From: Pseudomonadota bacterium
GTDB taxonomy: Bacteria; Pseudomonadota; Alphaproteobacteria; Dongiales; Dongiaceae
Direction: 5' to 3'
Assembly (NCBI GenBank): GCA_016183985.1
Contig: JACPDN010000005.1
Coordinates: 312,901 to 376,900, forward strand
Length of the DNA stretch: 64,000 nt
Every line of letters begins with the position of its first letter. Within the stretch, counting starts at the first letter, position 1. Below are positions 8,689 to 57,629 of the stretch, piece after piece. The notes under the pieces were generated by a model that saw only the letters and a list, made by a program, of their open reading frames with translations, ran no database searches and was not told the origin of the DNA. Made by a program: the position numbers and the translations under genes.

Positions 8689-9756
8689 ATGAAGATTAAG
8701 ATCGGCTTGGCCGGCGCCGCCCTGCTCGCCCTCGCCCTCATCGGCCCGGCTGCCGCCAAGACCAAGAATCCGCTGCAGCCCCCGCCACCGGCCGTGCCGG
8801 TCGGTGATGTCGATGCTCAGCCCCTCGAAGCTCTCACGCCGCCGACGCTCGAAGGCACCGGTCAGGCCATTGATGGCGATGAGATCGCGATCGGCGATGT
8901 GATCTTCCAGCTCGATGGCATTGCTGCCCCGCTTATGACTGCGCCGATGGGTCCGGAAGCGCGTGTCGCCTTGCAGGCACTCATCGACGGTCAGCGCCTC
9001 ACTTGCAACGTGCTCGATCGCGGCGAGGATGCGAAGCATCTATCCGGCGTTTGCAAGATCGGCGATGACGATGTCGCCGAAGCCTTGCTGGCCGGTGGCA
9101 TGGCGGCAGTCTATCGGCAGACGACCTCGCCGAATGCCGAAGAGCGCGAGCGCGCGGCGCGTTATGACGCTGCCGAAACCGAGGCCCGCGGCCGCAATCT
9201 GGGTCTTTGGACAAGGCCGGCATCGGAAGAGGCGAAGATCGAGCAGGCCCCGCCTACACAAGAGCCGGCGATGGACCGCGATCTCTTGCGCGGCTGGCTT
9301 ATTCAGATTCCGATCGTTGCCTTCCTCGCCCTTGCGGGGCTTGTTGCGCTTGTCGTGAACAGCTATCGGAACCGAGCGGAGGACAAGGCGGTCGAAGCGG
9401 AAAGCCAGGCACTTCTTGCCATCCTGCTGGGCGAAGTGCTGGCCGTGCGCGCGGCGGCACAGGCGGCGGTCGACGGCACCGCCAACCTCATCCAGGATTT
9501 ACCGATTCCAACAGCACAACTGGCGAGCCTCGCCTTGCCACCAATGACAGTGTTCGAGGCCAATGCCGACAAGCTTGCCTCGCTGCCGCGCGAGGTGTCG
9601 GTGGATATGGTGCAGTTCCATGCCCGACACAAGATCGTCGCCAAAGTTCTGTCGCAGGCGTCGACCTTGCGCTGCGAGCAGCTGCGGGCGGCCTTCGAGG
9701 CCCTGGTCCAGGCCGCGGACGAACCGATGCAACGGGCGGAAAAGCTGCTTGGCTAG
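8689..9756 (+). CDS. Secreted/membrane thermonuclease (SNase-like) domain protein with TM helix and helical C-terminal domain
   Basis: Signal peptide; AIDGDEI, LDGIAAP, ALLAGGMA, AETEARGRNLGLW match the SNase fold; TM WLIQIPIVAFLALAGLVALVV. Confidence 0.75.
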   Translation: MKIKIGLAGAALLALALIGPAAAKTKNPLQPPPPAVPVGDVDAQPLEALTPPTLEGTGQAIDGDEIAIGDVIFQLDGIAAPLMTAPMGPEARVALQALIDGQRLTCNVLDRGEDAKHLSGVCKIGDDDVAEALLAGGMAAVYRQTTSPNAEERERAARYDAAETEARGRNLGLWTRPASEEAKIEQAPPTQEPAMDRDLLRGWLIQIPIVAFLALAGLVALVVNSYRNRAEDKAVEAESQALLAILLGEVLAVRAAAQAAVDGTANLIQDLPIPTAQLASLALPPMTVFEANADKLASLPREVSVDMVQFHARHKIVAKVLSQASTLRCEQLRAAFEALVQAADEPMQRAEKLLG

Positions 9757-10637
9757 GTGTGCTGCGGATAGCGGCGCTCGAGGTAACGCGCGAGCGCCGT
9801 GAGCAGGATCAGGATCGCCATGTATTCGAGCGCCAGGAAGGTATAGATCTCCATCGGATGGAGAATTTGGGTCTGGGATAGCATCGCCCGCCGCGTGATC
9901 TCCATGACGCCGATGGCACCTCCGAGTGACGAATCCTTGACGACCGAGATGAACTGGCTGGTCATCGGCGGCAGCATGCGCCGGACGGCCTGGGGCAGGA
10001 TGATCCGGCGCATCAGCAGCGGCCGCGACATGCCGAAAGCAAAGCCCGCGTCGATCTGTTGCTTCGAGACGCTTTCAATGCCAGCGCGGAAAATCTCGAC
10101 CAGAAAGGCGCCGGCGTTGAGCGAGAGGCCAATGCAGGCCGCCGTGAAAGGCGTCATCTGGCTGAGCATGTCGAGTCCCGGCAGGGAACGCAGATTGTCC
10201 GGCAGTTCACTGATCGCGATCGGCAGCGCGTAATACATCCAGAGCAGCAGGACAAAGAGCGGCACCATGCGGAAGCCTTCCACATAGAGCCAGACCGCGC
10301 GCTGCACCGAACGGTGCCTGCTGCGCGAGAGGATTGCCCCCAGCAGTCCGATGACCGAGCCGCAGGCGATCGCATAAAGCGAGAGCAGCAAGGTGAACTG
10401 AAAACCCGCCGTCAGGAACCAGAAATACTTGTCGCCGGTCGGAGTGCCTGGCGTAAGCGGCGTCCAGTCGCCGCAGCCGGTCAGCAGGAGCGCCAAGAGC
10501 GTTGCGGCAGCGGGACTTGCCGCACGGCGTACGGCCGCAGAGGACCGGCCCGGCCCCAACTGGCCAAGATGCGTCGACGATAAGCCCAAGGAATGGTTCC
10601 CGCAAAGAAGGCGCCCAATGGCGCATCGTGGTGTCAT
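9753..10637 (-). CDS. Polar amino acid ABC transporter permease
   Basis: YVEGFRMVPLFV, GLSLNAGAFLVEIFRAGIESV (EAA-like loop), RRIILPQAVRR, SVVKDSSL; start uncertain. Confidence 0.88.
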   Translation of the reverse strand: MTPRCAIGRLLCGNHSLGLSSTHLGQLGPGRSSAAVRRAASPAAATLLALLLTGCGDWTPLTPGTPTGDKYFWFLTAGFQFTLLLSLYAIACGSVIGLLGAILSRSRHRSVQRAVWLYVEGFRMVPLFVLLLWMYYALPIAISELPDNLRSLPGLDMLSQMTPFTAACIGLSLNAGAFLVEIFRAGIESVSKQQIDAGFAFGMSRPLLMRRIILPQAVRRMLPPMTSQFISVVKDSSLGGAIGVMEITRRAMLSQTQILHPMEIYTFLALEYMAILILLTALARYLERRYPQHT

Positions 10638-10793
10638 AGCAGTACACGCCGGGAATTCAACCTACCTATACGTGCGTATTGTTAACACTTTCCCGTTTTG
10701 AGATTGTCACTTTTACTTGTACACTCCGAGTATTCTCTACCTTCCATAACATATCGATCTGCGCGAACGCAGACTCATGACGGGGAGGATCGC

Positions 10794-12605
10794 ATGGCAT
10801 CACAGCCAGAATTGCGTCGCACTTGGCGTTTGCTCATTTGCACCACAGCTTTGATCAGCTTGTACGGCTGCGGCTTGCCGCTCTATCTCCACAAGGATTC
10901 ATACGAGAAAGAAACGGCGGAAGTGAAGAAGACCGTCGACGATCTCGAAGTCGAGGCCGGCTACAAAAACCTGATCGCCGACGCGAAGGAAATTGCGGGG
11001 CTGGAGGACAGCGCCGTCACCGATGCCACGATCGCAAGACGCAATGCCGAGTTGGTCAGGTTGATCGAGCCCTTTCCAGGCGACGCAGGCGCGGCTTCGC
11101 AAAAAAATGGGGCCGCCACCTTATTCTACTCAGCACTTGAAGCCGATATTGCGACCCTTGTCAGCGGCAAGACAACGCTCGTCGACGAAGATACCGACAA
11201 AATCAGCGCGGCCCAGTTGGAGCGGGTTTTTGCCAGCGCGAACGATCGGGAAGCCGACGTCGCCCAATTCATTCAAGGATTGCGTTCGATCTATGCGATC
11301 AAGACCGCCCACCAGGGCGAGATCGAGGTTCCGGCTTGGACCTGTGAAAGTCCGGAGATCGCAAAGGCCGATCCGGCATCGATACAGCCACCGCTGAACC
11401 CCGTCCCTCCCGAGGCGGCTGCCGACCGCGACACCGAGACCGTAGAGATGTTTCAGGCCCGCCTCGCGCGAAACAAGGCCGGTCTCAATCTGAGGTGTCA
11501 GAACCGGAGCGATGCTTGGAACGCCCGGGCCACCTTCCTTAAGATGCTTGGAGCGGAAGACAAGTTGCCTGAGACGGTGGGCAATGTCCCCAAAACAGCC
11601 GCAGATCTTTATGCAAAACTAGCGCAGCGGCAGTGGTTCATCCGAGATGCCGAGAAGTTGCGCGCCGATCTCGAAAAACTGCTGGGGAAAGTGTTCAAGA
11701 AGGACGACAAATCCGCCATTCTGTCCGCCATCGAGAACGTGAAGAAGATTCTGCCGGAGGCGAACGCCTTGGCGCAGGCCGCTGGCTGGAAAACGTTACT
11801 GACCTATACGCAATGCGGCCTGGCTGCCGAATTGCTCGCGCTCAGTGCGAGCGACGAAACGGGCAGCGATGCGGCAGGCGACAGCAAAGCGCGCGAAAGT
11901 GTCGCGAATTCCATCGCAGGCACGGAGAAATCCGTCGATGGCGCAGACAAGAGCAAGGAGACGACCATTGCTTGCGAAGCGGGAAAGTCGGGCATCCAGG
12001 TCGGCAAGGATGGCGAAGCCAATCCGTTGATCCTGGATGTCGCACATGTAATTCTCGGTGTCGAGCATGACACCAAGACGCTCAAGATGCTGGAGCGCCT
12101 GAACGCCGAAATCATGGCGATTGCAGAACTGCGCCAGCAAGCCGAGGTTGCTGACGCTCAGGCTCGCTTCGGCGGCGTCAATATCCAATTGCAGAAGGCA
12201 CGACTCCACGCATTGTTGGAGCAACTACGCCTGGTCAAGGCGTCGAGGACGGCATTGAAGGCACTTACGTCCGTCCAGAAGCCTGGATCGCAAACAGATA
12301 AGGCATCGCTGACGGATTTCAAGGCGAATGCCCAAGACTACTATCATGTCGCTGCCGCGCTCACTGACTATGCTCAGTCTTGGGACAGCGGCCGCATTCC
12401 GGTTGCGTTGCTGAACTATCGTGTGCTTCAAGCCAGGCGCAATCATGACATCGAACTCGCCACCATTACGGCGAAAAACTACAAGGAACTGCTAAAGCCA
12501 ATCGTCGATGCCTTGGCCGCCTATGGTGCCGGGGGAATTCCGGCCGAGTTGCTGGGCCAGCTCCTGGGCAACGCAGCAATCATTGCAGGTATTGGTACGC
12601 TTTGA
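10794..12605 (+). CDS. Hypothetical alpha-helical lipoprotein (~600 aa)
   Basis: GGGGAGG RBS before ATG 10794; lipobox LYGC; Ala/Leu-rich helical pattern; hydrophobic Gly-rich C-terminus; no family recognised. Confidence 0.7.
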   Translation: MASQPELRRTWRLLICTTALISLYGCGLPLYLHKDSYEKETAEVKKTVDDLEVEAGYKNLIADAKEIAGLEDSAVTDATIARRNAELVRLIEPFPGDAGAASQKNGAATLFYSALEADIATLVSGKTTLVDEDTDKISAAQLERVFASANDREADVAQFIQGLRSIYAIKTAHQGEIEVPAWTCESPEIAKADPASIQPPLNPVPPEAAADRDTETVEMFQARLARNKAGLNLRCQNRSDAWNARATFLKMLGAEDKLPETVGNVPKTAADLYAKLAQRQWFIRDAEKLRADLEKLLGKVFKKDDKSAILSAIENVKKILPEANALAQAAGWKTLLTYTQCGLAAELLALSASDETGSDAAGDSKARESVANSIAGTEKSVDGADKSKETTIACEAGKSGIQVGKDGEANPLILDVAHVILGVEHDTKTLKMLERLNAEIMAIAELRQQAEVADAQARFGGVNIQLQKARLHALLEQLRLVKASRTALKALTSVQKPGSQTDKASLTDFKANAQDYYHVAAALTDYAQSWDSGRIPVALLNYRVLQARRNHDIELATITAKNYKELLKPIVDALAAYGAGGIPAELLGQLLGNAAIIAGIGTL

Positions 12606-12617
12606 CAGGAGACCGCT

Positions 12618-13484
12618 ATGACCAAGACGACATTGTATTCCCCTGCCTTGCTGTTGGCCGTCATGCTGTATGGTTGCGCCGGCGAGGACGATGCCCAACG
12701 CTTGGCTGCGAAGGCCTCGACGAGCGTCACTGATCTGAAGCTCCATGTCGACCGAACGATGGGCGACTATCAATTTGCGCGGACCGAAGATTATGATCGG
12801 TTGTCGGCCCTCAAAGCCTTGGCCGTTGATACCGACAGTCAGACTAATGCTAGAGCGACGACCTGGGATGTCGTCGGCGACAAGGTAAAATCGGACCTGC
12901 TCAAGACCTATAAGACAATGACGCCCAAATCCGCACTAAGCGCGTCGGCAGCGTCCATCTTGATTGAACCGGTTCCACCTTTCAAACCGACGTCGCTGGA
13001 CGAGAAGGCCATGAATAGCTTGGTTGCCAAGCTTGGCAGTCTGGCAAAGGATCCTACGCTCGTAAGCCGTCTGGTCGGCGCGACCGATTACTTCCTGAAG
13101 GTTCAGGCGGCATACAATAAGACGGTGGAAAATTCTCAAAATAAGCCCGCCGGATCGACAAAGATCGGCAGCACCAAATCCGGCGCAGGTAATGCACTTG
13201 CCGTCACGATGGCCGAGGCGACACCGGACAAGGGCGCGGATAGCGCTGACCTGACAAGCTATCTGGAGGCCTCTTCGGTCGAAGAAGCAACCTTCCGGAC
13301 AATGGCAGACAAAGCAGCGGCAACCAAAGAGTCGAAGCCGATCGATCCGACACAATTATCCTTCATGGCCGCAGCACCCAAGCCACCCGCCAAACCGGCC
13401 GCACCACCATTGGACTTGTCGGGCGAGCGCAGCAGTGCATCGGTGACCGACCAGTTGATTCAAGACCTCTTTCCGGCACCATGA
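12618..13484 (+). CDS. Hypothetical lipoprotein (288 aa)
   Basis: CAGGAG RBS; lipobox MLYGC; Pro/Ala-rich C-terminus; stop overlaps the next start (ATGA). Confidence 0.7.
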   Translation: MTKTTLYSPALLLAVMLYGCAGEDDAQRLAAKASTSVTDLKLHVDRTMGDYQFARTEDYDRLSALKALAVDTDSQTNARATTWDVVGDKVKSDLLKTYKTMTPKSALSASAASILIEPVPPFKPTSLDEKAMNSLVAKLGSLAKDPTLVSRLVGATDYFLKVQAAYNKTVENSQNKPAGSTKIGSTKSGAGNALAVTMAEATPDKGADSADLTSYLEASSVEEATFRTMADKAAATKESKPIDPTQLSFMAAAPKPPAKPAAPPLDLSGERSSASVTDQLIQDLFPAP

Positions 13485-15160
13485 CGGTCCGCTGCGCGGC
13501 CATGCCAAACCGGCGACGCTTTTTGAGCGGCGGCGCTTCGTTGCTGGCGACATCCTATGCGGGAGCGTGCCAGCTCCGACTGCCACAGGTGCCGCCAGAA
13601 TTGGCTGAGATGATCGATGTCCATGCGCATATGTTCAATGCCAGCGACTTGCCGGTAGAGAGATTCATCCGCCTGGTCTTTCTGAAGCTGGATTTGCCGT
13701 CCGATGGCAATGACGCAAAGAAGCTGCGCAACGAGGACTATGTCGATGCGCTCATCCGGTTACTGATCAAGTTGCTTGGCGCCGAGCGGGCGCCGACCGC
13801 CGTTGCGGAAATTCGCGTGTTGGAGGGCCTCGCGAAGCCAGCGACCGAAAGCAGCGAAAACGAGATTGAGAGGACATTTGTTCGGAGGCTGGCGACTTAT
13901 CTGGAGGACAACGCCGCCATCCAAGACATGGAGAGTCCGGCCGGTAATGGCGACAAGGCAGTGCGGGACGATCTCATGGAAGCCGGAGGAACATCGCCGG
14001 CGACCGATGAGGCGGCCAGTACAATGCGGTTGGGCGGGTTTCGCGCCATCGCCGCAAATGCATTCCTGTCCAACACCTTCGTCGGGCGTGCACTACGCTG
14101 GTTCGCCCTCTTCAAGATGTATCGGCATGCCTTGGTCGATCGCTGGATCCGGGACCAACGCGCATTAGGCGCCAAGCCGCTGCTGGTGGCGCCCGCCACC
14201 ATCGACTTTTCCTGCTGGCTGCAGCAGAAGGTCGATTCCAAGCTTTCCGATCAGGCACGGGTCATGGGCCTGATCGCCGCCCAACGCAAGGACGTTGCCG
14301 TCCACGGCTACATCGCTTTCGACCCGTTGCGCGCCGCCTATTTCAGGCACAACCTGCCCGAAGCTGAGTTCGATCCGCTCTCTGTCGTGCGCGAATCGCT
14401 GACTCATCATGGCTTTCTGGGTGTAAAGCTCTATCCGCCGATGGGGTTCAAACCGTGGAACAACAGCAGCAGCGGGCAGGCAGATTTCCCACCCCATGTT
14501 CGCCAACGGCTCAGCAATATCGGCGCCGAGCTCGACCAGTCGTTGCAGGCTCTCTACGAATTGTGCGAGGAGCTGGACGCTCCAATTCTGGCACATGCGA
14601 CAGACTCGAACAGTTCGCATGAAGGCTATGAGATGCGGGCCGATCCATATTATTGGCGATCGGTCTTCGACAATTGCCAGCGCTTACGCGTGTGTCTCGG
14701 ACATTTCGGCCGCTTCAGGGCGAAGTCTGCCGGGTCAAATGTGACGACGATGCCCGCGGCAAGCTGGGAGTGGAATCTGGGGGCATATCTCCTGGAACAT
14801 GGCGAGGCGCCGATCTATGCCGATCTCAGCTTCTGGTCGGAGGCACTAGCAGAAAACGGCACTGCCCGGCGCGAACTCGCCAAGAATCTGACGGATTTCA
14901 TTCATGCCTTCGACCCGGACTTGCGCCACCTGATGTTTGGGACGGACTGGATCATGGTCGGCATCATCAAGGACTACCAGGCCTATGCGCAGTCGATCAT
15001 TCGCTTCCTGCGAGAAGATTGCGCGCTTGGCGACGCTGAGGTGTACGCGATCATGGTCGGCAATGCACGGCGTTTCCTGGGGTTGAGTGAAGGCAGCGGC
15101 GCCTATCGCCGCCTGCAGGCCTTCCATGCCATCAACGGCCGCGACATGCCGTCTCTATAA
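13481..15160 (+). CDS. Amidohydrolase_2-family metallohydrolase with Tat signal and lipobox
   Basis: NRRRFL Tat motif then YAGAC lipobox; IDVHAH, GFLGVKLYPPMGF, PILAHA, CLGHFG, MFGTDW metal-centre motifs. Confidence 0.82.
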   Translation: MTVRCAAMPNRRRFLSGGASLLATSYAGACQLRLPQVPPELAEMIDVHAHMFNASDLPVERFIRLVFLKLDLPSDGNDAKKLRNEDYVDALIRLLIKLLGAERAPTAVAEIRVLEGLAKPATESSENEIERTFVRRLATYLEDNAAIQDMESPAGNGDKAVRDDLMEAGGTSPATDEAASTMRLGGFRAIAANAFLSNTFVGRALRWFALFKMYRHALVDRWIRDQRALGAKPLLVAPATIDFSCWLQQKVDSKLSDQARVMGLIAAQRKDVAVHGYIAFDPLRAAYFRHNLPEAEFDPLSVVRESLTHHGFLGVKLYPPMGFKPWNNSSSGQADFPPHVRQRLSNIGAELDQSLQALYELCEELDAPILAHATDSNSSHEGYEMRADPYYWRSVFDNCQRLRVCLGHFGRFRAKSAGSNVTTMPAASWEWNLGAYLLEHGEAPIYADLSFWSEALAENGTARRELAKNLTDFIHAFDPDLRHLMFGTDWIMVGIIKDYQAYAQSIIRFLREDCALGDAEVYAIMVGNARRFLGLSEGSGAYRRLQAFHAINGRDMPSL

Positions 15161-15165
15161 AACAA

Positions 15166-15195
15166 ACCGGCCCAGTTCATGCGAGCTGGGCCGGT
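15166..15195. terminator. Stem-loop between convergent genes (T-tract on the minus strand)
   Basis: ACCGGCCCAG / CTGGGCCGGT; the minus strand continues TTGTTTT. Confidence 0.7.
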
Positions 15196-15221
15196 CTTGC
15201 TACGCCGCAAATGGTAAACGC

Positions 15222-16022
15222 TCAGCTGCCCGCGATCCATTTGGCAAAGAGGGCATCGAAGAACCCAGACTGAACCTTCATGGTGACCCAGGTGTCGAGC
15301 CAGTTGCGCCAGATGTAGTCGCCACGGACCGTCATCATCGCATTGGGCTGGCCTTCGATGGCGTGGGTCGGATCGACCGCGACGAGCTTATCGGAATACT
15401 GCGCCAGCGCCTTCTTGATGAAGACGGTGTCGGTGATGGCGGCATCGACCTTGCCGGCGAGCAGTTCCTGATAGTCGAGGGCCGGCGCCACGATCGGCAC
15501 GATCTCGGCTTTGGTGAAGTTCTTCTTGGCCGATTCCTCGGCCGACGTGCCGGACTGGACTGCGATGCGGATGCCTTCCTTGTCGAGGTCGCGCCAGGCC
15601 GCGTATTTCGCGCCGTCCTTGGTCTGAACCAGCGGCACCAGCGGTGAATCGAGATATGGTGCCGAGAAGCCGATGCTCTTCAGGCGGTCCAGGGTCAGCG
15701 TGATGCCGGACGCAGCCACGTCATACTTCCCAGCCTGGATGCCGGCGGCCAGTGTTTCCCAGGTAGTCGGAACGAATTCGACCTTCACACCGAGATCGGC
15801 CGCGAGCTGGGTAACGACGTCGATCTCGTAGCCCTTATAGGCGTTGCTGCTGGTGTCGAGTTCGGAATACGGCGGGTAGTCTCCCGTGGTGCCGACCCGC
15901 AGCGTGCCACGCTCGAGAATCTGGTCCAAAAGGGACTTCGCTTCGTCAGCCTTGGCCTGGATCGGCAGGGCCACGGCAATCGCCATGAGCCCGGCGGCCA
16001 AGCCGCTCAGAAATTTCCACAT
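15222..16022 (-). CDS. Amino acid ABC substrate-binding protein (SBP family 3, PheC/cyclohexadienyl dehydratase-like clade)
   Basis: Signal peptide; LDQILERGTLRVGTTGDYPPYS, VEFVPTTW, KYDVAASGITLTLDR. Confidence 0.85.
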   Translation of the reverse strand: MWKFLSGLAAGLMAIAVALPIQAKADEAKSLLDQILERGTLRVGTTGDYPPYSELDTSSNAYKGYEIDVVTQLAADLGVKVEFVPTTWETLAAGIQAGKYDVAASGITLTLDRLKSIGFSAPYLDSPLVPLVQTKDGAKYAAWRDLDKEGIRIAVQSGTSAEESAKKNFTKAEIVPIVAPALDYQELLAGKVDAAITDTVFIKKALAQYSDKLVAVDPTHAIEGQPNAMMTVRGDYIWRNWLDTWVTMKVQSGFFDALFAKWIAGS

Positions 16023-16267: not shown

Positions 16268-17989
16268 ATGGCCGTTCCTTTGACCGAACGATTGCGCGAG
16301 GAACGAGACCGCTTTGTCGGCTTCGCCTTTTCCAATGCCGATGTGCTGGTGGAAATGGACGAAACCAGCAAGATCCTATGGGCCGGCGGCGCCATTAAAT
16401 CGATCTTGGGGATCGAGACCGCCGACATTACGGGCAAACCGCTTTCCGACCTTCTGGCAACGCCGGATGCCATCCTGCTCAAAAGCGCTTTGCGCAACCT
16501 GATGCCAGGACAGCGCCGCCGCGACCTCAATCTGGTACTGGCCGATGCCGCTCATCCCCCATGCGGCGGCGACGATGGCGAGAAGCGCCTGACGATCTCG
16601 ACCTGCATCAACCGATCGCTGAAGAAGGACCAGCCTCATTATTTCCTGAGTATCAGCAACGCGGCGCTGAACGCGCTGCCTCATAGCGGCGCGCGCCGCC
16701 GGGACCGTGTCACGGGCCTCACCGAAGCCGTCGAGTTTACCTATGCCGCCTCGCGTGCTGTGCAGGAGGCCCGTAAATCGGGCAAGTCCGCCTGCCTGAC
16801 GCTGCTTGAAATCTGCGAGATCGACGCGTTGAACAAGGTCATGGGGCCGCAACGCGCGGAATCTCTCATGGCCGAGATTGGCGCGCAGTTGAAGCTGCAC
16901 GCATTGGACCCGAATTCCGCCACCAAACTTGGTGATGGCAAATTCGGCGTGACCCATCTGGAAAGTACCGACCCGAACCTCATCGTCGCTGCCATCAACC
17001 GCGTGGGCGATGCCTACGATCTGGCCCCCGAGACGATGCATGCCGCGGGGAAGACCATTTCATTCCAGGGCAGTTCGCTGGCAGAAGACGACGTCGAAAG
17101 CATCCTCTCCTACGTCGTCGGAAAGTTCTCCAGCGAAGGCATCAACAATTTCGATGCCAGCGCGGCAGATCAATACTTCAAACGCATGACGGCGGAGGTG
17201 CTGAGCCGCGTCGTCGCCATGCGCGACCTTATCCACCAGCACCGCATCAACCTGCATTTCCAGCCCATCGTCCGTTTGCAGGATCGCACGCCCCATCATT
17301 ATGAAGTCCTGTTGCGCTTCGAGGACGGCAGGTCACCCTTTGCCGACGTCATGTTCGCGGAAGAGATCAACATTGTTCACGAGCTGGATCTGGCGGTCGC
17401 CTATGGTGCGATCAACCGCATCTCCCAATCCGCCGCCAAGGATGTGGATTTGCGCCTGGCCGTCAACATGTCGGCGCGGTCGCTGCTCAACGACAACTTC
17501 CTCAGCATGTTCGATGAATTGGCCGGGAAACTGGGGCAGCAACGTAGCAACCTCATCGTCGAGGTAACGGAATCAGCAAAGCTCGACGATCTGCCGAAAG
17601 CCGCCATTGCCGTCAACCGCCTGCGCGACGCAGGGCATTTGGTATGTCTCGACGATTTCGGTGCGGGTGCATCGTCCCTGCCCTATCTGCAGCAATTGCA
17701 GGTGGATTTCGTCAAGATCGACGGTGCCTATATCAAAAGCATTACGGAATCGCTGCGTGAGCGGGCCATCGTGCAAGGCGTGCTGACCACCTGCCGCTGC
17801 CTCAACATCAAGACCGTAGCCGAAATGATCGAGAATGAAGATCAACACAAATGCCTGCTGGATCTCGGCACCGATCTGGGCCAGGGCTGGCTGTACGGCC
17901 GACCATCTCCGGACATTCCTGTGCCGGATGCGAGTGGTGGTGCAGCACGTCTTGGCAAACGCCGCGGCGCCAAGGATCAGTGGGGCTAG
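16268..17989 (+). CDS. PAS-like + degenerate GGDEF + EAL domain protein (probable c-di-GMP phosphodiesterase)
   Basis: HFQPIV, YEVLLR, LAVNMS, EVTES, LDDFGAG, KIDG, VAEMIE, GQGWLYGRP; GGDEF replaced by LGDGKF. Confidence 0.88.
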   Translation: MAVPLTERLREERDRFVGFAFSNADVLVEMDETSKILWAGGAIKSILGIETADITGKPLSDLLATPDAILLKSALRNLMPGQRRRDLNLVLADAAHPPCGGDDGEKRLTISTCINRSLKKDQPHYFLSISNAALNALPHSGARRRDRVTGLTEAVEFTYAASRAVQEARKSGKSACLTLLEICEIDALNKVMGPQRAESLMAEIGAQLKLHALDPNSATKLGDGKFGVTHLESTDPNLIVAAINRVGDAYDLAPETMHAAGKTISFQGSSLAEDDVESILSYVVGKFSSEGINNFDASAADQYFKRMTAEVLSRVVAMRDLIHQHRINLHFQPIVRLQDRTPHHYEVLLRFEDGRSPFADVMFAEEINIVHELDLAVAYGAINRISQSAAKDVDLRLAVNMSARSLLNDNFLSMFDELAGKLGQQRSNLIVEVTESAKLDDLPKAAIAVNRLRDAGHLVCLDDFGAGASSLPYLQQLQVDFVKIDGAYIKSITESLRERAIVQGVLTTCRCLNIKTVAEMIENEDQHKCLLDLGTDLGQGWLYGRPSPDIPVPDASGGAARLGKRRGAKDQWG

Positions 17990-39532: not shown

Positions 39533-39608
39533 TGGTGGGCGATGACGGACTCGAACCGCCGACATTCTCGGTGTAAACGAGACGCTCTACCAACTGAGCT
39601 AATCGCCC
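39533..39608 (-). tRNA. tRNA-Val(TAC)
   Basis: GGGCGATTAGCTCAGTTGGTAGAGCGTCTCGTTTACACCGAGAATGTCGGCGGTTCGAGTCCGTCATCGCCCACCA; 76 nt with encoded CCA. Confidence 0.97.
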
Positions 39609-57215: not shown

Positions 57216-57337
57216 AATAAATCCCCTTACTGTCATTCACGCCGGATGGGGATATCGCATCTTGATCGGCCGGCATCTTTCGACGTCACCTCGATCACAC
57301 CGCGCGGACACCCCGTCCGGAATACGGATTCGCTTCG

Positions 57338-57555
57338 CCGCTGGCAGGTCTCCTGGCTCACGAGTGACTGGCGGCGCCACCTTCCCAACCGATCTCGGCA
57401 CTTTTGCGTACCGTTTCTCGGCCAGTGGTTACTTCGGCGTCCGCCCCTCGCTTACAGTTGCGGGGGCAGTCACGGCTTTGGCCCCTATTTGGGTCGTCCG
57501 CACCGTGTTCCCTATTAATCCCCTGGAATCTATCCATTGGGGAACCATCGACATC
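57338..57555 (-). ncRNA. Cobalamin (AdoCbl) riboswitch
   Basis: GGTTC, AATAGGGAACACGGTG, GACTGCCCCCGCAACTGTAA, CCACTG, TGGGAAGG, GAGCCAGGAGACCTGCC; upstream of cbtB. Confidence 0.95.
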
Positions 57556-57629
57556 CGATCATTCGCCGAGCCGTCACGCGGCGTCAAGGAATTTGTCCAA
57601 TCCCCGACGGCCAGACATCTGCTTTTCTC

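Follow-up and report, generated by a model that had tools for sequence, protein, structure and literature searches.

The locus and its genes

The stretch of DNA analyzed here as a whole, which we call the window, comprises 64,000 nucleotides (nt) from a bacterium of the family Dongiaceae within the Alphaproteobacteria (assembly GCA_016183985.1, contig JACPDN010000005.1, positions 312,901 to 376,900). It contains three consecutive genes, p1, p2 and p3, which encode two predicted lipoproteins and a predicted amidohydrolase with a twin-arginine translocation (Tat) signal (Table 1). The distribution of the homologs makes it very probable that this operon has a composite architecture and joins two units, namely the p1-p2 lipoprotein pair and the exported amidohydrolase p3.

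In Dongia, p1, p2 and p3 constitute a predicted co-transcribed and translationally coupled operon. A GGAGGA ribosome-binding site is located approximately 7 nt 5' of the ATG of p1, and this start agrees with the start position in all close homologs. The stop codon TGA of p1 (12603-12605) is followed by the 12-nt spacer caggagaccgct, which contains an AGGAG sequence, and then by the ATG of p2, while the stop of p2 and the start of p3 overlap by 4 nt in the sequence caccATGAcgg. The three co-oriented genes, the gap of 12 nt and the ATGA overlap are thus all present as given in a preliminary description of this DNA. The promoter scan of the region revealed a single match, compared with 1.8 matches expected from shuffled sequences, so that this match is not significant on its own. 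The GC-rich hairpin, which separates the convergent p3 and binding-protein genes, is likely a bidirectional terminator closing the operon against the convergent gene. RNA data on the operon structure were sought, and the sequence was found to occur only in DNA runs of a groundwater metagenome. Since each of them has homologs elsewhere, p1, p2 and p3 are genuine genes and not chance open reading frames (ORFs), and the confident structural models for p1 and p3 (predicted local distance difference test, pLDDT, of 84 and 91, respectively) also speak against chance ORFs.

Distribution of p1, p2 and p3

Dongia rigui and Dongia-like contigs from metagenomes harbor the nearest relatives of each of the three proteins (53-76% identity). 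In these loci the trio occupies the same site, flanked by the genes of an ABC-transporter permease and of a periplasmic binding protein, and both the 12-nt gap between p1 and p2 and the 4-nt overlap between p2 and p3 are kept in D. rigui and a second Dongia genome (L001 and L003). Since the whole 17-kb neighborhood is syntenic, the Dongia loci have to be regarded as one evolutionary observation and not as independent support.

Homologs of p3 with up to 42% identity were collected by a scan of species-representative genomes, which returned no Dongia genomes, and none of the resulting 80 loci contains a p1 or p2 homolog within 10 kb of the p3 homolog, as judged by phmmer and the family hidden Markov model. 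Vice versa, no p3 homolog is present at any of the ten independent p1-p2 contexts outside of Dongia (L084, L085, L086, L087, L089, L091, L092, L094, L095 and L100). In all ten of them, and in two Dongia loci, the p1-like gene is immediately followed by the gene of the p2 homolog. The p1-p2 pair and p3 have independent distributions, and only Dongia relatives possess the trio. The preliminary description had proposed a three-gene system, which was to be refuted if the genes did not co-occur in other genomes. The synteny of the trio is kept in Dongia, but elsewhere p3 occurs without p1 and p2; conservation does not extend to all three parts, and for p3 versus p1/p2 the proposal is refuted by its own test. 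As a system of three genes the proposal does not hold beyond one genus, while the co-occurrence of p1 with p2 is universal across the non-Dongia contexts.

It is also in the light of this distribution that one has to judge whether p1, p2 and p3 form a single dedicated envelope complex in which each subunit is obligate, an enzyme being combined with scaffold or channel partners. Such a complex would fit the tight operon with its coupling conserved within Dongia, the common export signals to the envelope and the shared evolutionary rate of the three genes. However, the trio is limited to one genus-level lineage with a syntenic neighborhood, which offers no independent observations, and p1-p2 and p3 are otherwise never found together. 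The distribution thus largely refutes an obligate complex, which we consider improbable. From the membrane-tethered envelope complex that had been suggested at first, the export and lipidation signals stand, as they are conserved in all three families, but the trio is limited to Dongia.

The predicted lipoproteins p1 and p2

The lipobox test pattern [LVI][ASTVI][GAS]C was assigned to p1, p2 and p3, lipidation thus being predicted from sequence, and the lipobox cysteine is conserved in each of the three families. In p1 and p2 the lipobox reads LYGC, in agreement with the preliminary description. p1 and p2 are predicted Sec-exported lipoproteins, and p1 would be tethered by its N-terminal lipid.

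The word-indexed protein search, which pre-selects candidates by shared words, yielded five proteins for p1, all of them of the Dongia type, and a profile of 39 sequences returned the same five proteins there. By exhaustive HMMER search with a profile of the five p1 proteins we obtained 154 cluster representatives (clusters at 50% identity), 71 of them at E ≤ 1e-10; a metagenome scan with a narrower alignment gave p1 relatives at two loci. The members of this family mostly comprise 480-630 amino acids (aa) and are best conserved in the C-terminal approximately 170 residues. A lipobox was detected in 93 of 113 full-length p1 relatives, and Cys26 is at least 90% conserved among 107 family members. 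The lipidated cysteine is followed by the family motif LY(L/F)H..YE..T, whose His33 is at least 90% conserved, and 79 of the 113 family members possess a YLH-like motif behind the lipobox. Two further conserved cysteines, Cys184 and Cys235, might form a periplasmic disulfide.

The sequence of p1 ends with GGIPAELLGQLLGNAAIIAGIGTL. In the family, the hydrophobic tail is preceded by a (Y)G.GGI motif with the invariant G581, and 67 of 106 sequences have a tail of exactly 21 residues (range 17-24). An interpretation of the tail as a GlyGly-CTERM or PEP-CTERM sorting signal was rejected, as p1 gave no NCBIfam/TIGRFAM match (NCBIfam searched at E ≤ 1) and the tails have no basic cluster but close with no more than a single Lys or Arg.

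The AlphaFold2 model of p1, based on 107 sequences, is all-helical (pLDDT 84.4; predicted template modeling score, pTM, 0.83), with longest helices of 58 and 67 residues and with the tail as a terminal helix of low confidence. This bears out the earlier characterization of p1 as a helical protein of about 600 aa with a hydrophobic Gly-rich tail, the latter being conserved across the family. No significant match to p1 was detected in Pfam, NCBIfam, PADLOC or PHROGs, and the Pfam search with 39 diverse family members was empty as well. Foldseek revealed no relative of p1 in the PDB (best E 0.05, template modeling (TM) score < 0.2) and nothing meaningful among the viral models of BFVD, and the p1 profile matched PDB sequences only at the level of coiled-coil noise (XaxA at E 0.07).

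The lipobox of p2 lies in the sequence AVMLYGC20A. The homologs of p2 are small helical lipoproteins of 190-290 aa with pairwise BLAST E-values down to 1e-20 and the aligned core motif P.P.F....D.K, and nine of the ten non-Dongia homologs exhibit a clear lipobox. The short C-terminal motif of p2 is kept in the closer branch (L001, L003, L084, L086 and L089) and is absent from the distant branch. For the p2 family, no relative was found in Pfam, NCBIfam, PADLOC, PHROGs or the PDB, the PDB profile search returning coiled-coil noise only. Judged by its gene, which always comes next after p1 in the sampled loci, p2 appears to be an obligate partner of p1.

By all tests applied, the p1 and p2 families belong to no described family, and the fold appears to be new. 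The initial impression that both proteins match no recognized family is therefore in line with the empty Pfam, NCBIfam, PADLOC, PHROGs, PDB profile and Foldseek results, and the genes are claimed by no characterized system.

Long helical bundles combined with a conserved hydrophobic, Gly/Ala-rich terminal helix bring to mind pore formers of the ClyA/XaxAB/MakA type. p1, alone or together with p2, would then insert its C-terminal helix, and the hydrolases would activate it or act jointly with it. Bacterial gasdermins are protease-activated pore formers, and proteases occur beside the p1-p2 pair in some loci. There are also non-significant matches of p1 to XaxA (E 0.07), MakA, SmhB, AhlB and ClyA (E about 2, TM ≤ 0.21). 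However, similarity at this noise level is typical of any long-helix protein, and p1 has its hydrophobic element in a C-terminal tail of 15-18 residues and not in a central head hairpin as in the ClyA family. Moreover, p1 and p2 are predicted lipoproteins of the producer's own envelope, and the p1 gene, which is stably chromosomal, evolves under purifying selection. A pore former is accordingly very unlikely. For the channel role that had been considered for p1, only the hydrophobic tail speaks, as p1 has no significant similarity to pore-forming toxins.

The putatively exported amidohydrolase p3

p3 is predicted to be a Tat-exported, lipid-anchored metal hydrolase and represents a divergent branch of the known Amidohydro_2 superfamily. 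It matches the Pfam family PF04909 with 76.4 bits (cut-off 26.4 bits; E 4.2e-21), and this match is limited to residues 304-535 because a helical insertion of approximately 170 residues follows strand 1. In the AlphaFold2 model, which is a TIM barrel (pLDDT 90.8, pTM 0.90), the helices of residues 59-228 fall between the strands E43-49 and E232-239. Foldseek returned exclusively barrels of the amidohydrolase superfamily (E 4e-5 to 1e-3, probability 1.0, 11-17% identity). The nearest folds are 2qpx, the COG3618 lactonase 4do7, the salicylate, IDCase and ACMSD decarboxylases and LigJ, while the sequence profile of p3 matched no solved structure among the PDB sequences. Residues D46, H48, H50, K316, H372, H408, D448 and D489 are invariant among 111 p3 homologs, the last five of them being positioned on or beside predicted barrel strands, and the motif DxHxHxFN is present in 110 of 110 homologs. 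The predicted HxH/H/H/D metal center, which had been read from the sequence beforehand together with large insertions, is found with invariant candidate ligands.

The Tat motif of p3 is NRRRFLSGGASLLATSYAGAC, and a motif of the S/T-R-R-x-F-L-K type together with a mildly hydrophobic region was detected. The conservation of R11 and R12 is at least 90% among the 111 homologs, and 81 of 110 possess the motif RR-x-[FLIVM]. The lipobox AGAC is less canonical; Cys30 reaches a conservation of at least 90% among 22 homologs, and most relatives of p3 have a lipobox cysteine after the Tat motif, with an AxA-type cleavage site in a minority. This confirms the combination of RRRFL and AGAC on an Amidohydro_2 enzyme that had been noted for the third gene. 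Characterized Amidohydro_2 members are cytoplasmic, and export via the Tat system would suit an enzyme that needs to fold around its metal before export. A literature search on Tat-lipoprotein amidohydrolases found nothing relevant.

The protein search for p3 resulted in 359 matches. The proteins of the subfamily comprise approximately 560-580 aa, and their hosts include Rhizobium, Mesorhizobium, Ensifer/Sinorhizobium, Agrobacterium, Phyllobacterium, Inquilinus and Pseudomonas as well as many metagenomes. Automatic gene calls clip the N-termini of proteins of this family (in the window at 13481-13612), by which the export signal would be hidden in routine annotation. The database copy of p3 from the window (P0006) has a length of 516 aa, corresponding to 92% of the 559-aa ORF, and therefore cannot include the Tat signal and the lipobox. 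The annotation of the p3 homolog from Rhizobium etli starts approximately 96 nt inside the tblastn match (6001-6097 of L096).

Table 1. Features of the p1-p2-p3 locus, of its surroundings and of related loci. Positions without a locus name are those of the window.
Feature	Position	Strand	Remarks
p1	10794-12605 (ORF open from 10698)	+	603 aa counted from ATG 10794
p2	12618-13484	+	288-aa lipoprotein
p3	13481-15160	+	559-aa Tat-signal lipoprotein, Amidohydro_2 (PF04909) superfamily
Sigma-70-like promoter, weak match	10698..10725	+	TTGAGA-16-TACACT, upstream of p1
p1 signal peptide and lipobox	10794..10871	+	ALISLYGC26G; LYGC, Cys26, Gly at +2
p1 N-terminal family motif	10881..10916	+	LYLHKDSYEKET; directly behind the lipid anchor
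p1 segment between Cys184 and Cys235	11343..11498	+	both at least 90% conserved (107 sequences)
p1 C-terminal YGAGGI motif and tail	12522..12602	+	21-residue hydrophobic Gly/Ala-rich tail; motif in 106 of 154 family sequences
p2 C-terminal short motif	13440..13481	+	SVTDQLIQDLFPAP; follows Pro/Ala-rich low-complexity linker
p3 twin-arginine signal and lipobox	13481..13570	+	N-terminus MTVRCAAMPNRRRFLSGGASLLATSYAGAC30Q; RRRFL at residues 11-15; lipobox Cys30 in AGAC30Q
p3 DxHxH metal-binding motif	13616..13630	+	beta-strand 1; invariant; D46-x-H48-x-H50
p3 helical insertion	13655..14170	+	approximately 170 residues, between barrel strands 1 and 2
p3 further invariant active-site candidates	14426..14947	+	K316, H372, H408, D448, D489
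GC-rich hairpin	15168-15197	.	ccggcccag...ctgggccgg; between convergent p3 and binding-protein gene
SNase-domain protein gene	8689-9756	+	355 aa; just upstream of the permease gene
BPD_transp_1 permease gene	9753-10637	-
SBP_bac_3 binding-protein gene	15222-16022	-
EAL-domain protein gene	16268-17989	+	573 aa; beyond the binding-protein gene
tRNA-Val(TAC)	39533-39608	-	unrelated to the trio
Cobalamin riboswitch	57326-57564	-	107 bits; unrelated to the trio
Endonuclease/exonuclease/phosphatase (EEP) gene with p3 homolog	L098, L099: 5471-8713		Rhizobium plasmids
Tandem p3 paralogs	L075: 7920-9644 and 10001-11515		Ensifer metagenome-assembled genome (MAG)
p3 homolog with ubiquitin-like cluster	L096: 6097-13401		R. 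etli CFN42 plasmid p42a
d2, gene after p2 in distant p1-p2 loci	L091: 9389-9742; L092: 9427-9879; L094: 9685-10122; L095: 9501-9851; L100: 9233-9565		110-150 aa
d3, membrane protein gene	L092: 9912-10565; L095: 9865-10929; C-terminus of L091: 937-3327

Divergence of the cassette and its flanks within Dongia

The protein identity between the window and three Dongia-type loci amounts to 71-74% for p1, 64-69% for p2 and 72-75% for p3, whereas the flanking genes reach 85-98% in the same three comparisons; in one genome the flanks are 92-98% identical and p1 only 53%. The number of synonymous substitutions per site (dS) is two- to four-fold higher in the trio (1.2-2.2) than in the adjacent genes (0.42-0.86), and the GC content at third codon positions is 0.65-0.72 in the trio versus 0.73-0.82 in the neighbors. 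The contrasts in identity and dS with the flanks indicate that the trio shares one history which is different from that of its surroundings. The trio behaves as a cassette at a fixed locus with deeper allelic divergence, which is compatible with recombinational exchange or with long-maintained alleles.

The permease gene and the binding-protein gene, which are both located on the strand opposite to the trio, are normally adjacent, and the locus has the appearance of a transporter operon split by a 4.5-kb cassette. No ATPase gene adjoins them, and all Dongia loci are arranged in this way. Flanking repeats were sought as a mark of a mobile insertion, and only repeats at chance level were detected. 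Just upstream of the permease gene, a conserved protein with a signal peptide, an SNase domain and a C-terminal membrane segment is encoded. The EAL-domain protein beyond the binding-protein gene is of the cyclic-di-GMP phosphodiesterase type and is conserved in the Dongia loci. The window also contains a cobalamin riboswitch and a tRNA-Val gene, both unrelated to the trio.

Neighbors of p3 homologs outside of Dongia

Within the 80 loci scanned, p3 homologs often have no co-oriented neighbor, and some have other exported hydrolases beside them. An S8 peptidase gene precedes the p3 homolog in four loci (Sphingomonas, Tahibacter, Rubrivivax and one further proteobacterial MAG), and in Rhizobium an EEP gene with a signal peptide is consistently found approximately 180 bp upstream of it, as on the plasmids L098 and L099. 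In Agrobacterium vitis a PLD-like gene follows the p3 homolog, and an Ensifer MAG carries tandem p3 paralogs. The loci on which these observations on neighbors rest also include L008 and L022. On plasmid p42a of R. etli CFN42, the p3 homolog is located beside a ubiquitin-like/E2/JAB cluster encoding DUF2604, metal-binding, MPN(JAB) and E2-fold proteins; a TIR-domain protein and a caspase-family protein come next, and the whole stretch is defense-island-like. The lipoproteins encoded upstream of the p3 homologs at L083 and L014 turned out to be unrelated to p1.

These variable and mobile contexts, in which p3 homologs lie beside EEP, PLD-like and S8 hydrolases, and the fast divergence of the cassette could be explained by a toxin-immunity set, in which antibacterial toxins (p3 and the other exported hydrolases) would be matched by p1 and p2 as immunity lipoproteins of the periplasm. 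Lipoproteins are known to serve as periplasmic immunity proteins. However, most p1-p2 pairs have no adjacent toxin candidate and most p3 homologs occur without p1 or p2. In addition, p1 with its approximately 600 aa is far above the typical size of an immunity protein, and there are no secretion-system genes or toxin-delivery domains near the trio. This explanation is highly improbable.

Neighbors of p1-p2 outside of Dongia

At some p1-p2 loci hydrolase genes lie next to the pair. In L089, a trypsin with a signal peptide and a membrane-anchored Peptidase_C14 caspase are encoded immediately downstream of p1-p2, and in L100 a patatin-like phospholipase, which is also a lipoprotein, is encoded immediately upstream. 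Upstream of the pair in L091 there is a CHAT protease, and a CHAT/NB-ARC/TPR protein is encoded near the pair in L095; the CHAT proteases have no assigned export signal. The CHAT-associated loci also have an MmeI restriction system, a transposase or an integrase in the vicinity. In L084, the closest relative (33% identity), we take the next gene to be metF-like, as its N-terminus resembles methylenetetrahydrofolate reductase, and in L086 the gene after the pair lies on the opposite strand.

A proposed membrane-anchored lipoprotein module

Taken together, we see an even chance that p1-p2 is a lipoprotein module teamed with exported hydrolases, its partner in Dongia being the amidohydrolase. As to the mechanism, we can only tentatively suggest that the pair serves as a platform for interchangeable exported hydrolases. 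p1-p2 would form a membrane-anchored periplasmic platform, and this platform would hold, position or control an exported hydrolase, which in Dongia might be the amidohydrolase, while elsewhere it might work with proteases or a phospholipase. p1 could act as a helical stalk of approximately 100 Å, and its conserved tail might serve for membrane or partner contact. The role of the module would be accessory, of the conflict type or in envelope remodeling, and not in core metabolism. An accessory or conflict flavor is suggested because of the rare and patchy distribution, the fast divergence at a fixed locus and the occasional defense-island surroundings of both units.

Several observations weigh against a module of this kind. 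An exported hydrolase is immediately adjacent to the pair in only three of 11 independent contexts, and this sample of 11 loci is small; in other contexts metF, xthA or small unknown genes follow the pair. Five distant p1-p2 loci have a conserved gene after p2, d2, whose product carries no signal peptide and exhibits the motif F/MP(S/T)...E(I/L)..L. It is accompanied by the membrane protein d3 in two or three distant loci, d2 and d3 match no Pfam or PHROG family, and no d2 homolog was found in the window. Since d2 and d3 are missing in Dongia, the module may work differently between lineages. Furthermore, no relatives of p1 were detected in plasmid, phage and viral-contig collections, and the proteins of the trio have no match in PADLOC-DB 2.0 at E ≤ 1. 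The ratio of non-synonymous to synonymous substitutions (dN/dS) of 0.08-0.18 corresponds to purifying and not to positive selection, and part of the elevation in dS may be due to weak codon bias and not to an exchange of the cassette.

The main rival explanation is that p3 is a self-sufficient periplasmic hydrolase with a catabolic or detoxifying role and a functionally unrelated neighbor of p1-p2. p3 alone appears to be self-sufficient in Rhizobium, Mesorhizobium, Ensifer, Sphingomonas and others, and the shared operon would then be mechanistically meaningless. This would account for the absence of p1 and p2 from 80 of 80 p3 genomes, in which a co-oriented neighbor is often missing as well, and for the p1-p2 pairs without p3 at every non-Dongia locus checked. 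However, Dongia genomes with a difference of approximately 30% in protein sequence have retained the ATGA overlap between p2 and p3, the excess of divergence over the flanks is shared by all three genes, and different exported hydrolases recur beside p1-p2. We thus regard unrelated neighbors as a serious but rather unlikely explanation.

In another reading, p1-p2 is the core of an undescribed envelope-based conflict system, used for anti-phage defense or antagonism. This core would sometimes be extended by the small coiled-coil protein and the membrane protein, and its interchangeable effectors would be the Tat-amidohydrolase in Dongia and, in other lineages, a secreted trypsin with a caspase and the patatin lipoprotein. 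p1 would sense or gate a periplasmic event and then release or activate the hydrolase. At present such a conflict system appears unlikely.

Lipoproteins that organize or control exported hydrolases are central in envelope biology, and only few families of them have been described. If the link between p1-p2 and the hydrolases is functional, the pair represents a new envelope module with swappable enzymes, and a large subfamily of Tat-exported amidohydrolases, which is common on rhizobial plasmids, obtains its first biological context. If the link is not functional, two function-unassigned families share an operon in one genus by chance.

Comparison with known systems

p3 shares with the PF04909 enzymes (4do7, 2qpx, ACMSD, IDCase and LigJ) the barrel, the HxH motif of strand 1 and the His/His/Asp residues of later strands. 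It differs from them by its low identity of 11-17%, the insertion of approximately 170 residues after strand 1, the invariant Lys316 on a barrel strand and the family-wide Tat signal, which is mostly combined with a lipobox.

p2 resembles Lpp/OprI (NF040598) as a small helical lipoprotein with a weak match over the signal peptide and the first helix. The assignment of p2 as an alanine zipper of this type was rejected, since the match reached 13.3 bits compared with a cut-off of 43 bits (E 0.088), and p2 differs in its size of 190-290 aa and in its conserved core PxPxF...D.K. The ClyA-family toxins (ClyA, XaxAB, MakA, AhlB/SmhB) have in common with p1 the long helical bundle and a hydrophobic, membrane-seeking element, and with p1-p2 the organization in binary or tripartite gene sets. 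However, neither the sequence similarity (E 0.07) nor the fold similarity (E about 2, TM ≤ 0.21) of p1 to this family is significant, and p1-p2 differs by the C-terminal position of the hydrophobic tail and by the lipoprotein nature of both proteins.

The resemblance of p1-p2 to known conflict systems and lipoprotein regulators would be one of logic only. Gasdermin-protease operons and the cyclic-oligonucleotide-based antiphage signaling system (CBASS), with its patatin, protease or nuclease effectors, consist of a conserved core and swappable effectors. p1-p2 is likewise a core beside variable hydrolases, patchy, fast-diverging and in some cases found in defense-island-like surroundings. However, it has no match in PADLOC, and the core, like the hydrolases next to it, carries signals for export to the envelope, while gasdermin and CBASS systems are cytoplasmic. 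NlpD/EnvC with amidases, LpoA/LpoB with penicillin-binding proteins and NlpI with MepS are envelope lipoprotein regulators of periplasmic hydrolases. p1-p2 has no relation to them in sequence or fold, its partners would be interchangeable and are not peptidoglycan enzymes, and it is rare and patchy, unlike the housekeeping lipoprotein regulators. What p1-p2 might share with NlpD/EnvC, LpoA/LpoB and NlpI is the logic of anchored lipoproteins, some of them elongated or helical, that control an exported hydrolase.

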